Sequence record: OR352948.1
Origin: Escherichia phage AV118
Length of the DNA: 64,000 nt
Reading direction: 5' to 3' (one strand)
Below the pieces are notes generated by a model. That model was not told where the DNA came from. It did no database searches and worked only from the letters and a program-made list of their open reading frames with translations. Numbering within the stretch: the first letter of the stretch is position 1; every line of letters starts with the position of its first letter. Below are positions 42,369-47,533 of the stretch, one piece after another. The position numbers and the translations under genes were made by a program.

Positions 42369-42609
42369 CTCGGTCCCATGATTTGGCCATTAATTCGGAC
42401 ATAAATTCTTCAATGCGCGTTTCTTTAGATGGACTTTCACTATTAGAGACCGCAAGTTTGTAATCTGCAATAGGACAGAACATATCAAGGTCCATATTAA
42501 GGTCGTCTTTGATTTTTTCTTCTGACACATCTTTATCGTATGTGTACAGATAACTATCACATGATTCTGATTTAATGTAAATTGCTATACTCATCTCAAA
42601 TTCCTGCAT
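42358..42609 (-). CDS. hypothetical acidic protein
   Basis: 83-aa ORF. Confidence 0.45.
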   Translation of the reverse strand: MQEFEMSIAIYIKSESCDSYLYTYDKDVSEEKIKDDLNMDLDMFCPIADYKLAVSNSESPSKETRIEEFMSELMAKSWDRDDE

Positions 42610-43070
42610 TCGGTAATAAAACGTTCAACTTCATTATTCTTGGCTTTTATCTTGTCTTTATGTTCTTGTAAACTACTTTTAATAAGATTAATAATGATAG
42701 CGACAGTGCCGCCGCCAATGATGCCACCAATAATACTTACGATAGTAGATGCTAATAAGATAGCAATAATATCAACAAAACCGAAAGAACTCACCTTAGT
42801 ACTAAAAAACCATATAGACGGTACAAATATAATCCATCCTGTTATCCATTGGCACTTATTGAAAAACTTTTCAAGCTCAGCTTGAGTTGTTCGTATTACT
42901 TCATCGATAGGTTGATATCCGTTAATGTATCTGTTCACGATAATACCTGCTGACTGGTCGATTTTAAATTCTTGGCAAATATGTTTCACTAAGTATGATG
43001 GACATCCTGTCCAATCTACTGAATAGTATGAAATACCTTCATTGCCGTCGTCTATATTATTGTTAATCAT
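42591..43070 (-). CDS. membrane protein with C-terminal ERFITECR motif (FIKECR family)
   Basis: 159 aa; hydrophobic core segments; C-terminus ...EVERFITECRNLR. Confidence 0.6.
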   Translation of the reverse strand: MINNNIDDGNEGISYYSVDWTGCPSYLVKHICQEFKIDQSAGIIVNRYINGYQPIDEVIRTTQAELEKFFNKCQWITGWIIFVPSIWFFSTKVSSFGFVDIIAILLASTIVSIIGGIIGGGTVAIIINLIKSSLQEHKDKIKAKNNEVERFITECRNLR

Positions 43071-43756
43071 TACCAGCCTTCCATAGGGAATTCCAGATAA
43101 ACTTGAGCATTGACACGAATTTCATTGGTAATCTTTTTAACTCGGTCTGTATTACGAGATACACGTCCGAACCAACGCCATCCGTTACTAATTGCACGAG
43201 AACCAGTGTGCCATGTTTGCCAATCAAATTGAAGAAGAGTACGGTCTGGAGCTTCCCATTTCTCTAGTTCGCCTTTTTCGATTTTTTCGAGGACTTCTTT
43301 GTGCCACTGGCGATAGATAAGTTTGCCATCAGGAATCTGACTGAACTCTGCAGTTCCTGTTGCAAAATGAGTAGGACACACATCAGCGTTAACAAGACCA
43401 AGAATATGTTCAGACAAATAGCGAGGATTGTCATAGTCAGGTTGTCCTGCAGTAATAAAGTGTTGACCAACTGGAATATCAGGGCGTGGAACATCGTCAT
43501 GGTGATATCCAGGAATAGCAGGGTACCAGCCAGGCATCAGCATGTGGACTCGTGAATCAAATACAACATCCGAGTCTTTCCAATCGTCAGGGAGATTTTG
43601 GATAAAGCTACGAGTAATTGGACCGCCATTATCAAAAGCAAAATTCAAATCGCAATTAAAGAACATAGGCTCGTTTTTAATCTGGCCATTTTTAATCGCA
43701 TGAGCAAAACCACCTACTGCACGAGCTTGACTATTAAACACTTTAGAACTATTCAT
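43070..43756 (-). CDS. hypothetical protein
   Basis: 228-aa ORF, His/Asp-rich central region, SD GAGGAAA. Confidence 0.55.
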   Translation of the reverse strand: MNSSKVFNSQARAVGGFAHAIKNGQIKNEPMFFNCDLNFAFDNGGPITRSFIQNLPDDWKDSDVVFDSRVHMLMPGWYPAIPGYHHDDVPRPDIPVGQHFITAGQPDYDNPRYLSEHILGLVNADVCPTHFATGTAEFSQIPDGKLIYRQWHKEVLEKIEKGELEKWEAPDRTLLQFDWQTWHTGSRAISNGWRWFGRVSRNTDRVKKITNEIRVNAQVYLEFPMEGW

Positions 43757-43757
43757 A

Positions 43758-44063
43758 TTATTTTCCTCGGCATTCTTTAATGAAATTTTCTAGATTGGTA
43801 GATTCAATAGCTTTTTTACGAGCTTCTGCATGTTCTTCTTCGGACAATTTACATTTATAATTGACCCAGACATTATGGTCGAAACTAGTCGTGGCATATA
43901 ATAACAATGCTCCAACGAATAGCAAAAACGGTGATAAGAATACAAAACCAGGAACACCATCCATACTGTAAGCCTTTTGTAATACTGCAACAGAAAGAGC
44001 TGCGTAAAAAGGTGATGCAAATATTGTTAAAAGACCAATTCGGTTGGTTTCGCCTAATTTCAT
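43758..44063 (-). CDS. membrane protein with C-terminal ENFIKECR motif (FIKECR family)
   Basis: 101 aa; two hydrophobic helices; C-terminus ...LENFIKECRGK. Confidence 0.6.
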   Translation of the reverse strand: MKLGETNRIGLLTIFASPFYAALSVAVLQKAYSMDGVPGFVFLSPFLLFVGALLLYATTSFDHNVWVNYKCKLSEEEHAEARKKAIESTNLENFIKECRGK

Positions 44064-44091: not shown

Positions 44092-44121
44092 ACTATAACA
44101 TAATCCTATAATTATGTAAAC
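44092..44121 (-). promoter_or_regulatory. T4-early-type promoter in palindromic element
   Basis: GTTTAC + TATAGT inside GATAGGACTA-type inverted repeat. Confidence 0.45.
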
Positions 44122-44133
44122 AGTTTTGCGAAA

Positions 44134-45090
44134 TTATTTGAAAGGTTTTACCATATGAAAATTTTCTTTAAACCGTTTGATGTAATCATTTTTGCCGAGC
44201 TTATGATACATAGCCACTACTTCATAATAGTTCTCGTATGCGTACTCACGGAACCAACCGGAGGTGATGCTTGTGCAGACTTTTTCTAATGCCATCATGA
44301 AACTGGCTTCAGGGTTAATTTTAAAGTCATTAGGAATTTGAGAACGTTCTAATGCTAGTACACATGATTCTTCATATACACCAGCCAGTTTAATCATTTC
44401 GGGTAACGATTCGAACTTCTCGCGTGAGGTCATGACTTCAGAACCGTCTTTCATATAAAATGTATACGCTGGACGGTCTGTTAGTGCAATGGCTTCATGA
44501 ATAGTATCATGGTCATATGTATAGATGTCATCTTTAAAGAACGCACTTTTAGAAGTGTCAAGAACTGGGTGAGCATAGTTCAAGGTTTCTTTCTGGCGTT
44601 TCAGCATAATTTCAGTAAGTTCATCGTTCAGTGTAACACCTTTACCACGAAGATACTGAATATGGTTCATAGTCTTTAAAAAGAATGGATTATTTTTCTT
44701 GAAACGATGAGACATCTTAATTGCAAGACCTATCTCAGGAGTTGCCCAGTAAAACCCGTTCAAACGGTCTTTAGTCAAATTTTTCTTGGCGTATTTTAAA
44801 AGGTCATAAGAAGACGTGAAATCTTCAGGAGTGAGTTCACCGACTAATTCACGGACATTAGTGATTGCCGGAACAATATATGCTTCAAAATGAGTTTCGC
44901 GTCCATTATGGAAGCATTTGAAAACTTGGACATCAGGGTTATCTTGGTGAACATATACACCCATCATTTGATTTTTGAATGCATTCCAAGAACCTTGGTC
45001 CGCAATAAAGTCCCAATCACTATTTTTGATAGCGCTAGAATCAATAAGACCGTGATAGTGAAGTGCACGAGAACCAATAACTAACATCAT
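44134..45090 (-). CDS. hypothetical protein (possible divergent nucleotidyltransferase-like N-terminus)
   Basis: 318 aa; N-term GSRALHYHGL...SDWDF loosely resembles GS...DxD. Confidence 0.5.
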   Translation of the reverse strand: MMLVIGSRALHYHGLIDSSAIKNSDWDFIADQGSWNAFKNQMMGVYVHQDNPDVQVFKCFHNGRETHFEAYIVPAITNVRELVGELTPEDFTSSYDLLKYAKKNLTKDRLNGFYWATPEIGLAIKMSHRFKKNNPFFLKTMNHIQYLRGKGVTLNDELTEIMLKRQKETLNYAHPVLDTSKSAFFKDDIYTYDHDTIHEAIALTDRPAYTFYMKDGSEVMTSREKFESLPEMIKLAGVYEESCVLALERSQIPNDFKINPEASFMMALEKVCTSITSGWFREYAYENYYEVVAMYHKLGKNDYIKRFKENFHMVKPFK

Positions 45091-45115: not shown

Positions 45116-45367
45116 TTAAATTTCGCGACATGCGATATCATATTCATCCCAGAGGTCATCATGTGAAGCCTCTACCAATGGAACGATTGTACCGTTTATG
45201 TCTTCATTATAAGGGCAAATTGTACAGTGCGCATCTTCGAATCGGATGCCTTTGTGTTCAGATTTTTTATAACGCATATCGAATATCTTTGCAAACTTTT
45301 CACGAGTAATGGTTTTAGCAACCACTTTGGTTCCAATACTTTCATAATAAATCATCGTGGACTCCAT
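45116..45367 (-). CDS. hypothetical protein (C-terminus ...DIACREI)
   Basis: 83-aa ORF. Confidence 0.5.
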   Translation of the reverse strand: MESTMIYYESIGTKVVAKTITREKFAKIFDMRYKKSEHKGIRFEDAHCTICPYNEDINGTIVPLVEASHDDLWDEYDIACREI

Positions 45368-45383
45368 TTAATTTGATAGGACT

Positions 45384-45413
45384 ACTATAACATAGCCCTA
45401 TCTTGTTGTAAAC
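45384..45413 (-). promoter_or_regulatory. T4-early-type promoter in palindromic element
   Basis: GTTTAC + TATAGT inside GATAGGACTA-type inverted repeat. Confidence 0.45.
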
Positions 45414-45417
45414 TGTT

Positions 45418-45615
45418 TTAGCAAGAATAACTAGATGATACCCAGCCTTGAACAGTGATACTATTGTGGGATAATGAGATCGCGTCCTGGAGATTCAGAC
45501 CTGCGTTATCTTCAATCCATAATGTAACTTCTTCGCGTTCTTCTGTTGCAATTTGGAACAGGTTTTCCAGGGCAGCTACTGCCGTACGTACAGCACAATC
45601 TAATTCACGAGACAT
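45418..45615 (-). CDS. small protein ending ...GWVSSSYSC (WVSSSxxC family)
   Basis: 65-aa ORF; last tandem paralog. Confidence 0.55.
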   Translation of the reverse strand: MSRELDCAVRTAVAALENLFQIATEEREEVTLWIEDNAGLNLQDAISLSHNSITVQGWVSSSYSC

Positions 45616-45624
45616 ATCGTTTCC

Positions 45625-45897
45625 TTAGCAAGTGTGAGAAGATGCGACCCAACCACCAGTTTCGAGGCTCAGGTTGTAGTCGTATTGGTAAACGTCAGCC
45701 CATTCAGCATAGCCGTTTTTTGTACAACGTTCAAGATCGGCTTTAAGATGTCCGGGTGAATGATAGGTTCCACCCATACCATAAGCTGGGTACAAGTCGA
45801 ATGTTGTGTTTTGTTTATCAGCAATTTCTTTGGCAGCCTCAATAGCTGCATAGATTTTTGCTACAGCTTCAGCCAGTTCGGTTTGTTCTTTAGACAT
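45625..45897 (-). CDS. small protein ending ...GWVASSHTC (WVSSSxxC family)
   Basis: 90-aa ORF; SD TAAGGAA overlaps upstream stop. Confidence 0.55.
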   Translation of the reverse strand: MSKEQTELAEAVAKIYAAIEAAKEIADKQNTTFDLYPAYGMGGTYHSPGHLKADLERCTKNGYAEWADVYQYDYNLSLETGGWVASSHTC

Positions 45898-45906
45898 AAT
45901 GATTCC

Positions 45907-46212
45907 TTAGCACAACGCAGAAGACGAAACCCAAGCACCTTCAGTAATAACGTAACCATTACCTTCACGCTTAACATCGCCACCGTTATTTTCAATTTCA
46001 TTTTTCATCCACTGGGATACGATTTCACCCTTAGGATAATAAGTACGACCGCTACCATAATCACCTACAGAAAATGATACGGCATATTGGTCTGCGATCT
46101 TTGTTGCTTCTTCTTCGATACGTTCAGATTGATTCAGAAGTTTATAAATTGCATCTGAAGCAGATTTGGCATCATTAAACTCTGGTACTTTAATTTCAAT
46201 AATCTTACTCAT
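45907..46212 (-). CDS. small protein ending ...AWVSSSALC (WVSSSxxC family)
   Basis: 101-aa ORF; ATGA coupling with upstream membrane-protein gene. Confidence 0.55.
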   Translation of the reverse strand: MSKIIEIKVPEFNDAKSASDAIYKLLNQSERIEEEATKIADQYAVSFSVGDYGSGRTYYPKGEIVSQWMKNEIENNGGDVKREGNGYVITEGAWVSSSALC

Positions 46213-46568
46213 TTTCTACATTCCTTAATAAAGTTTTCGATTGTTTCATTTTCACGTCTAGCTAGGAGTTCATTATAACTAATCATTTGAGAAGCGTAAA
46301 TCTTTTTATTTTTCTTGTTATGGTAAATAAAGTCATAGTAAAAATAGACTACAGTACAAAATGATGCGATGGATGCAAAGGCTTGGGTATACCGTAAGTC
46401 CTGCCATTGGTCTGTGAATCCGCCAGTGTTCCCTATAAATCCTAACACAACGCCGTCAATAAGAAATCCAACTAATCCAAAGGCAAATCCCATGCCAATA
46501 CTCATAATAAAAATTAGAATGTTCTCACCAAGAGAAGGCCATACGGTTAAGAGTTGAGGCTTTTGCAT
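46209..46568 (-). CDS. membrane protein with C-terminal ENFIKECR motif (FIKECR family)
   Basis: 119 aa; hydrophobic N-terminal half; C-terminus ...IENFIKECRK. Confidence 0.6.
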   Translation of the reverse strand: MQKPQLLTVWPSLGENILIFIMSIGMGFAFGLVGFLIDGVVLGFIGNTGGFTDQWQDLRYTQAFASIASFCTVVYFYYDFIYHNKKNKKIYASQMISYNELLARRENETIENFIKECRK

Positions 46569-46909
46569 CTTATTTCCTTAACGAATTCCATAGCTTCTTC
46601 ATATTCATACTTTTTAACAACTTCATCATACTGAGCTTGGGCTTTTGCGCACTGAACTTTCCATTCACGAACTCGAGCTCTGTGATGACGGCCTTGGTAC
46701 CAATATCCCACTCAGTTAATAGGCATTAATAAAAATGGCACAATAAACGACCCGGCTATAATAAGTAAAAACACTGCATCAGACGATATAACTTTATTGG
46801 AATCTAAAATAGCTCCTATAATCATAAAGATTAAAAATGCTAAAGCTAAAATAGGGCCAAATAATACTTCGTTTGGGATTAATTTACGTTTGTATTCGTA
46901 TGCCCAGGC
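46569..46909 (-). pseudogene. putative decayed FIKECR-family membrane-protein gene
   Basis: No ATG; hydrophobic reading frame interrupted by TGA, followed in another frame by ...EEAMEFVKEIR tail; no ORF-track call. Confidence 0.3.
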
Positions 46910-47533
46910 TTAATTGGCATGTACAGGGTTGGCTTTGACATATTCTCTACATTCCATAATAAATTGCTCAAGGATTAAATTGTTAGTGAAATTAGGACTA
47001 ACAACCATAGTTTCATAAAGCGCATCAATAGCACTTAAAGCATCAACTCTTTTAAGCAAAGGCTTGCCTTCATACATAGTTTCAGAATCGACGATTAAAG
47101 TGAAGTAGTATTTTTTATTATCGACTAGAACTTCTGTATCGATATAAAACATATTAGACCTCAGAAGCTTATCTCTAAAACCATAATAATCTTTAGAGCG
47201 TTCGCTGATATATTCCCATTCAGTGTTTAAACAACAAACAGACCATGTAGGAGCAACGAAATCGGTGAATCTAATATCATGGTCTGCAACTAGTTTAGCA
47301 ATAGCTCCGATATCATGAATCATAATACCTGGGGCTAATAAAGATTTTCTGCTATGGCTAGCCGTTTTCTCAGTAGTCTCATAAGAAGACGACCAGTACC
47401 ATTTACGTCCAGTTGCAACATATCGTAATGAATCAACTAAAGACGTAGGTGGATTTACCTTATCTCGGAACTCTTCGAACATTGAGTCAATATCATTATT
47501 TTGGTTTCGCATGTTAACTCCTTTATTATCCAA
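46910..47533 (-). CDS. hypothetical protein carrying EQFIMECR motif near C-terminus
   Basis: 207-aa ORF, not obviously membrane-embedded. Confidence 0.55.
   Translation of the reverse strand: MDNKGVNMRNQNNDIDSMFEEFRDKVNPPTSLVDSLRYVATGRKWYWSSSYETTEKTASHSRKSLLAPGIMIHDIGAIAKLVADHDIRFTDFVAPTWSVCCLNTEWEYISERSKDYYGFRDKLLRSNMFYIDTEVLVDNKKYYFTLIVDSETMYEGKPLLKRVDALSAIDALYETMVVSPNFTNNLILEQFIMECREYVKANPVHAN

Follow-up and report, generated by a model that had tools for sequence, protein, structure and literature searches.

Cys-terminated tail proteins of large phages are encoded beside a predicted nucleotidyltransferase

What function could lead a phage to keep three adjacent small genes whose products end in nearly the same serine-rich segment, with a cysteine directly before the stop codon? 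The question arises from a stretch of DNA of Escherichia phage AV118 (64,000 nucleotides of record OR352948.1; hereafter the window), which shares 96-97% identity with phages of the RB69 type (Mosigvirus, Straboviridae). A sequence-only reading of the window had pointed to three genes encoding 65, 90 and 101 amino acids (aa) and ending in GWVSSSYSC, GWVASSHTC and AWVSSSALC, each followed by a stop. The open reading frames (ORFs) and a regular-expression scan bore this out: the pattern W-x-[SA]-S-x-x-x-C-stop occurred three times in all six frames of the 64-kb window, and only in these genes. We found that such tail genes and one further gene, for a predicted nucleotidyltransferase with the Pfam domains DUF7277 and DUF7275, constitute a mobile, phage-specific two-component cassette of one to five Cys-tagged small acidic proteins and one enzyme (Table 1).

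The first lead to this linkage was a 371-kb jumbo-phage contig in which two tail genes are followed by a gene for a 218-aa protein, itself acidic, and then by a DUF7275 gene, whose product was 55% identical to the 318-aa protein of the window. In the window, 330 bp separate the triplet, whose last gene ends at 45418, from the enzyme gene, which lies downstream in the same orientation with its start at 45090; the sequence-only reading had not flagged this enzyme. When loci were collected using tail genes as seeds, 57 of 59 had a DUF7275 gene within 6 kb, nearly always directly downstream and co-directional, and the two that did not include one contig end. Similarly, at least one strict tail ORF was present in 71 of the 80 loci seeded with DUF7275, and the approximately 150 tail ORFs of these loci were, with a single exception, upstream and co-directional. 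The 6-kb downstream halves of the 80 loci yielded one tail match; thus, the background is close to zero. Short tails of the form W-x-x-S-S-C lay directly upstream of the enzyme gene in four of the nine loci that were negative for the strict pattern; overall, 71-76 of the 80 loci had upstream tail genes. De-replication of the enzyme gave the same picture: tail ORFs occurred within 4 kb upstream in 89 of 101 clusters at 90% identity and in 54 of 65 clusters at 70% identity. The number of tail ORFs per locus ranged from 1 to 5, and 37% of the gaps to the enzyme gene were 100 nt or shorter. Finally, clustering of same-strand neighbours revealed that only tail-type clusters co-occurred broadly with the enzyme gene, the remainder being lineage-specific synteny.

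The pairing was seen in T4-like phages, in Phapecoctavirus ESCO5 (three subtypes upstream), in Otagovirus phiPsa315 (at least four), in jumbo phages (371-kb contigs) and in 11-26-kb metagenome contigs of uncultured phages. Among isolate phage genomes, tblastn gave matches in 733 for the enzyme and in 397 for the 101-aa protein, the latter including enterobacterial, Aeromonas and Acinetobacter phages and a Xanthomonas jumbo phage. The hosts of tail-family phages include targets of therapeutic phages, for example E. coli, Klebsiella, Acinetobacter and Pseudomonas. The cassette was nearly absent from cellular genomes, with five contigs of metagenome-assembled genomes among 185,579 species. Stenotrophomonas phage Mendera encodes a close homolog of the enzyme with no tails nearby. 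More distant homologs (~30% identity), from Gordonia, Streptomyces, Curvibacter and some Vibrio phages, were found without tail genes, and several of their otherwise invariant residues have diverged. On the 371-kb contig (L003 1-16249), the cassette forms part of an accessory island; its neighbours there include a Gad2-like gene, a T4-type Rnl1, PNKP, two metallophosphatases, a DNA ligase and a ClpP-like protease.

Within the window, BLASTP comparisons bore on the relationship among the three proteins, which had been taken for paralogs. The 90- and 101-aa proteins aligned with E = 4e-6 (30% identity across 73 aa), the 65- and 90-aa proteins with E = 4e-4, and the 65- and 101-aa proteins with E = 8e-3. 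These alignments indicate that the paralogy is real and, outside the tail, weak and distant. The 90- and 101-aa proteins matched phrog_899 and the 65-aa protein phrog_4882. The latter retains the N-terminal helix and the tail without the YGxGxTY hairpin motif, and its subtype was present in 19 of the 80 loci collected via the DUF7275 gene. In RB69, the counterparts of the triplet are ORF136c, ORF137c and ORF138c+139c. The 101-aa gene is split in the RB69 reference (AY303349; locus L001 5910-6216) into a 71-aa ORF ending in QWYEK and a 33-aa ORF; it is intact in the window and in most Mosigvirus genomes. In the reference, the gene has either undergone a frameshift mutation or been sequenced wrongly.

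The relatives of these proteins form a large family. Initial word-indexed searches returned few homologs (6 and 15 proteins). A full hidden Markov model (HMM) scan with a 10-sequence profile (E ≤ 1e-3) identified 603 cluster representatives at 50% identity. Among the best 149 of the 603, 138 ended exactly in W-x-[S/A/P/..]-[S/T]-[S/T/A]-x-x-Cys, and nine had one to four additional residues. One of the 149, a cadherin/RTX repeat protein of 2289 aa with 16 matched stretches (P0022), was a false positive. In 88 of the 138 representatives that ended in the motif, the terminal Cys was the sole cysteine of the protein. The tail is thus shared by distant homologs, with Cys as the last residue, which was the check that the initial observation called for. 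Indeed, the Ser-rich, Cys-terminated tail proved to be a strongly selected functional element that is conserved in enterobacterial T4-like phages, in phages of Aeromonas and Pseudomonas, and in jumbo phages.

We evaluated the coding of the tag using 214 distinct tail-coding sequences from the fetched loci, picked by the motif itself, with W(-7), S(-4), [S/T](-3) and C(0) fixed. At the flexible positions of this set, residue -3 was Ser in 214 of 214 sequences and residue -5 was Ser in 146, Ala in 31 and Pro in 27. The codons of the tag already differ between the three genes of the window (Val GTT/GTC/GTA; TCG/GCA/TCA; TCT/TCT/AGT). Across the 214 sequences, all six Ser codons, both TGC and TGT, and the three stops TAA, TGA and TAG were in use. 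This variation in synonymous codons and stops indicates that it is the peptide that is selected, rather than an element in the DNA or RNA. For the same reason, a shared ribosome-binding site or other regulatory DNA element, suggested by the occurrence of TGCTAAGGA after two of the genes, was ruled out: synonymous codons vary at every tag position.

The family has a common architecture, consisting of an N-terminal amphipathic helix, a beta-hairpin with Y-G-M/S-G-G/R-T-Y-Y, a variable acidic linker and the C-terminal tag. The tag, G-W-x-[S/A/P]-S-S-(x-x)-Cys-COOH, is the constant part. The hairpin motif Y-G-[MS]-G-[GR]-T-Y-[YH] was present in 135 of the 149 representatives and, in the window, in the 90- and 101-aa proteins and not in the 65-aa paralog. 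With a median pI of 4.4 and net charge of -8, the proteins are acidic, and many carry additional, degenerate copies of W-x-S-S in the linker, such as RWESSSEGWESSSEGWVSSSSQC. A third subtype of 72-77 aa, which does not occur in the window (loci L032-L063, e.g., L033 4893-5117; ESCO5 locus L177 2913-3131), contains an internal D-W-[LNQ]-S-S-S-C-Y-G-E copy and a short terminal W-x-[PSA]-S-S-C. The two residues before the Cys are therefore optional, and the motif can duplicate within one protein. The YGMGG type, the DYGxGxTYY type and the 72-77-aa type with its internal W-x-S-S-S-C are kept together in unrelated phage groups. Such joint retention argues for non-redundant clients rather than redundant inhibitors.

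Comparison with described families provided no assignment for the tail proteins, for which Pfam, NCBIfam and PADLOC contained nothing significant. Matches to Peptidase_S78_2 (E 0.0039), MS_channel_3rd and PDC-S49 were weak and below cut-offs. The N-terminal extensions of longer members contained no informative or recognisable fused domains. Nor did the family display the beta-grasp fold with a C-terminal Gly-Gly, activated by an E1-like enzyme, that marks ubiquitin-like and sulfur-carrier proteins (ThiS, MoaD). Prenylation of the CaaX type calls for a Cys four residues from the C terminus, and 138 of the 149 representatives place it last. A full-text literature search on the RB69 ORFs, the DUF and PHROG families and the motif returned no relevant paper, and neither the tail proteins nor the enzyme has a described function.

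The enzyme is predicted to be a Pol-beta-type nucleotidyltransferase with an intact catalytic signature. Specifically, G6-S7, D25-x-D27 and E69, which form the Pol-beta nucleotidyltransferase pattern, were invariant in 35 homologs, as were K125, H128, K139, R165, H174, H194-D195, H198 and E248-R249. The G6-S7/D25-x-D27/E69 signature held across approximately 120 non-redundant homologs, and the protein carries the catalytic pattern hG[GS]...[DE]h[DE]h...h[DE]h on an alpha/beta core. Sequence comparison indicates that the enzyme is under purifying selection. Its closest folds were those of MenT toxins and of the ANT and Lnu enzymes (ANT(2''), LnuA). Searches of the PDB by sequence, using the single sequence as well as a profile, yielded no match, and neither did PADLOC or NCBIfam. 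A link between the Cys of the tag and the two cysteines of the enzyme that had seemed invariant was considered and rejected: in a wider set of homologs, Tyr often replaces C243, and some tail-bearing loci have Ala or Ser in place of C272, so that neither is strictly required. The conserved residues 272-279 of the enzyme, C-T-S-I-T-S-G-W, resemble the tag (G-W-x-S-S-S-x-x-C) in reverse. Distant homologs from tail-less loci have I-[DSR]-[ST]-K-[GN] at the five positions compared, with Ile at C272, [DSR] at S274 and [ST]-K-[GN] at T276-S277-G278. The reversed segment may be a coincidence or a hint of strand pairing.

Several enzymes of the same fold act on proteins: GlnD modifies PII, GlnE glutamine synthetase, and MntA HepT. 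The partner of MntA, HepT, is encoded adjacently; the acceptors of all three enzymes are side-chain hydroxyls, on Tyr residues located in loops. The cassette resembles these systems in combining a nucleotidyltransferase-fold enzyme with a small partner protein. It differs in that its partners bear a C-terminal Ser-Ser-Ser-x-x-Cys tag and have no sequence relationship to the known ones, and modification is here a proposal. ANT(2'')/AadB and LnuA, in contrast, act on small-molecule antibiotics, without partner proteins dedicated to them, and have no counterpart of the helical DUF7275 domain, whose His and Asp residues form a conserved cluster (H128, H174, H194, D195, H198). RlaP, which is associated with RNA ligases, is likewise a phage-encoded accessory Pol-beta nucleotidyltransferase, and one jumbo-phage locus has Rnl1 and PNKP genes within a few kb of the cassette. 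However, an identity with RlaP was ruled out, as the enzyme did not match PF10127; moreover, an RNA-ligase gene is near in few loci only and the linkage is not general. Two sources on RlaP, in the text available, mention no partner proteins that bear a Cys tag (PMC7824862, PMC12776372).

Most likely, the tail is a handle by which the nucleotidyltransferase acts on, or is controlled by, the tail proteins. We infer that the tag is an interface with the enzyme, in which case the tail may serve as substrate, inhibitor or adaptor. We favour the first of these, with a probability of roughly 0.4 for the following mechanism. The tag would dock in the active-site cleft of the nucleotidyltransferase, where the thiolate of the terminal Cys and the alpha-carboxylate would anchor it at a metal or basic centre of the enzyme. 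The adjacent Ser hydroxyls, or the Cys thiol itself, would then accept the nucleotidyl group (nucleoside monophosphate). The paralogs would thus be client proteins that one enzyme modifies post-translationally, much as GlnD acts on PII and MntA on HepT. Three observations argue for a substrate: unrelated phages keep several non-redundant subtypes in combination; the additional W-x-S-S copies in the linker fit multiple acceptor or docking sites; and hydroxyl-directed O-nucleotidyltransferases (ANT(2''), LnuA) are among the fold neighbours. The early-gene, accessory context of the cassette suggests that the downstream target is probably linked to host takeover or counter-defence.

That cytoplasmic proteins otherwise devoid of cysteine should end in a near-invariant Cys and be linked to a single enzyme gene makes for a very specific hypothesis. 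If it is true, a protein-directed nucleotidyltransferase with a portable tag would constitute a new modification system and possibly a tool. A more far-reaching version, which we regard as speculative and unlikely in this form, is a new phage protein-tagging system in which the enzyme puts a nucleotide-derived group on the W-x-S-S-S-x-x-Cys tag or polymerises nucleotides from it. Small effector proteins that bear nucleotides and are directed at host targets would result, and the post-translational modification, with its portable and recognisable tag, would be both new and widespread in large virulent phages.

The best-surviving alternative, possible if on the unlikely side, is that the tail proteins are antitoxin-like inhibitors. 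The enzyme would then be an RNA nucleotidyltransferase acting on tRNA 3'-ends, like MenT or AbiEii, and the tail proteins would restrain it or time its activity. The tag could plug the electropositive active-site cleft, its thiolate and carboxylate chelating the catalytic metals. There is precedent: an upstream gene encodes the 68-aa protein that blocks MenT1 (PMC10435456; PMC7450476). Nevertheless, the cassette departs from MenA1-MenT1, MenAT and AbiE in several respects: it has no DUF1814/AbiEii Pfam match even at E ≤ 10 and no PADLOC match, and it is carried by virulent phages and almost never by cellular genomes. By sequence, the enzyme does not belong to DUF1814, a family marked by motifs I-IV with a family-specific C-terminal motif IV. 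Further, where those systems have one upstream gene the cassette has one to five divergent paralogs, all marked by the invariant tag ending in Cys; such a number, with three subtypes that recur in unrelated phages, is unusual for an antitoxin. To our knowledge, MenA proteins have no Cys-terminated tag. With its phage-borne distribution, arrayed partners, near-invariant C-terminal Cys tag and lack of sequence membership, the cassette is set apart from MenA1-MenT1, GlnD/PII and MntA/HepT. Were the tail proteins inhibitors, a phage-borne MenT-like enzyme with tag-based inhibitor arrays would bring toxin-antitoxin logic into virulent phages and bear on the tRNA-centred conflict between phage and host. 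Substrate or inhibitor, the outcome would be new in either case.

The tail proteins might also be adaptors whose variable bodies bind different host or phage targets, either protein or RNA, and whose common tag recruits the nucleotidyltransferase. Consistent with this, the tag is constant whereas the bodies have diversified, each phage has several non-redundant subtypes, and a locus has a single enzyme gene. Yet the bodies, of 65-100 aa, are small and have a common architecture instead of distinct binding domains, the longer members have no recognisable fused domain, and no target is known. We therefore consider an adaptor role improbable.

A terminus that reacts independently of the enzyme is a still more doubtful explanation. 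The sequence-only reading had suggested a reactive or modified terminus, and S-x-x-C-COOH could form a thioether or aminovinyl-cysteine (AviCys)-type ring or another Cys product, as in the maturation of ribosomally synthesized and post-translationally modified peptides (RiPPs); alternatively, it could bind metal or form an intermolecular disulfide. The terminal ring of epidermin-type lantibiotics has S-x-x-C spacing, the same as that of Ser(-3) and the C-terminal Cys of the tag. Arrays of paralogous precursor-like genes beside one enzyme gene also resemble RiPP loci, such as those for prochlorosins and epidermin-type lantibiotics, where several small products with a Ser/Cys-rich C-terminal segment are encoded together. 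However, the conserved and variable parts are inverted with respect to RiPP families, with an invariant "core" and a variable "leader", and the products of the cassette are folded domains of 65-100 aa. The co-occurring gene is that of the nucleotidyltransferase only: no RiPP tailoring enzyme, be it a dehydratase, a cyclase or a flavoprotein decarboxylase, accompanies it. The spacing between Ser and Cys is variable as well, W-x-x-S-S-C and the internal W-x-S-S-S-C occurring in the same arrays. Thus, the hallmarks of lanthipeptide and AviCys precursors, namely a co-encoded dehydratase/cyclase or HFCD decarboxylase, a fixed ring spacing and a hypervariable core, were not found in the tail family.

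It is slightly less probable again that the tag is a short linear motif for a conserved host protein of Gram-negative bacteria and that the adjacent enzyme gene is inherited synteny without functional coupling. Every tail-bearing isolate infects Proteobacteria, and the distant enzyme homologs of actinophages and some Vibrio phages are without tail genes, as this explanation would have it. Nevertheless, the adjacency persists where all other neighbours have changed, in both search directions and over a near-zero background, and gene order and strand are almost invariant.

The weakest proposal, made in the sequence-only reading, was that the tail proteins act with the surrounding membrane proteins ending in FIKECR-type motifs (e.2, ORF133c, e.3 and e.5): the start of the 101-aa gene does overlap the e.3 stop, by 4 nt, and such genes flank the block in the window, but the co-occurrence data largely refute it, since FIKECR-like C-termini were limited to T4-like loci (33 of 178 fetched loci) with no co-occurrence with tail genes beyond these, T4 has e.2 to e.5 and no tail genes at the locus, and the gene that travels with the tails is that of the DUF7277/DUF7275 enzyme instead.

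Table 1. Coordinates of the cassette and neighbouring features in the window
Feature	Position	Strand	Description
Tail gene, paralog 1	45907-46212	minus	101 aa; DYGSGRTYYP subtype; C-terminus ...GAWVSSSALC, then TAA
Tail gene, paralog 2	45625-45897	minus	90 aa; RB69ORF137c; YGMGGTY subtype; C-terminus ...GGWVASSHTC, then TAA
Tail gene, paralog 3	45418-45615	minus	65 aa; RB69ORF136c; phrog_4882; C-terminus ...QGWVSSSYSC, then TAA
Tag and stop codon, paralog 1	45907-45933	minus	W-V-S-S-S-A-L-C
Tag and stop codon, paralog 2	45625-45651	minus	
Tag and stop codon, paralog 3	45418-45444	minus	
Promoter-like site	45384-45412	minus	sigma-70-like match TTTACA-17-TATAGT with upstream TG; right after the stop of the 65-aa gene, ahead of ORF135c
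RB69ORF135c	45116-45367	minus	83 aa; between triplet and nucleotidyltransferase gene; T4-like loci only
RB69ORF134c (predicted nucleotidyltransferase)	44134-45090	minus	318 aa; Pfam DUF7277 (residues 2-101) and DUF7275 (residues 122-305)
Promoter-like site	44092-44120	minus	near-identical, TTTACA-17 nt-TATAGT with TG; directly ahead of ORF133c
RB69ORF132c	43070-43756	minus	228 aa; phrog_1843
Predicted membrane/small proteins with FIKECR-type C-termini	42591-43070, 43758-44063, 46209-46568, 46547-46711, 46910-47533	minus	

The triplet sits in a 3.5-kb block, ORF132c-ORF139c, between e.2 and e.3, and this block is missing from T4 at that position. The FIKECR-type C-termini of the region, a second motif family separate from the Cys tag, read RFITECRNLR (e.2), NFIKECRGK (ORF133c), NFIKECRK (e.3), EFVKEIRCK and QFIMECREY (e.5). 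In the same-strand neighbour clustering, e.2- and e.3-like genes showed T4-like synteny only, in at most 16-31 of 80 loci. RB69ORF135c is probably outside the core module.

The site between the 65-aa gene and ORF135c could provide ORF135c and the nucleotidyltransferase gene with their own transcription start. Together with the site ahead of ORF133c, it may be a phage early promoter, the two splitting the block into transcription units. Both are consensus matches only, and the number of such sites in the sequence was not above the expectation from shuffling.

At the far end of the block, RB69ORF132c has no Pfam match and is rich in His, Asp and Trp (GYHHDD, WHTG). In 23 of the 80 loci it occurred downstream of the nucleotidyltransferase gene, at a distance of approximately 1.4 kb; these include Aeromonas phages, whose counterparts were 81% identical, a conservation that is unusually high for an accessory ORF.
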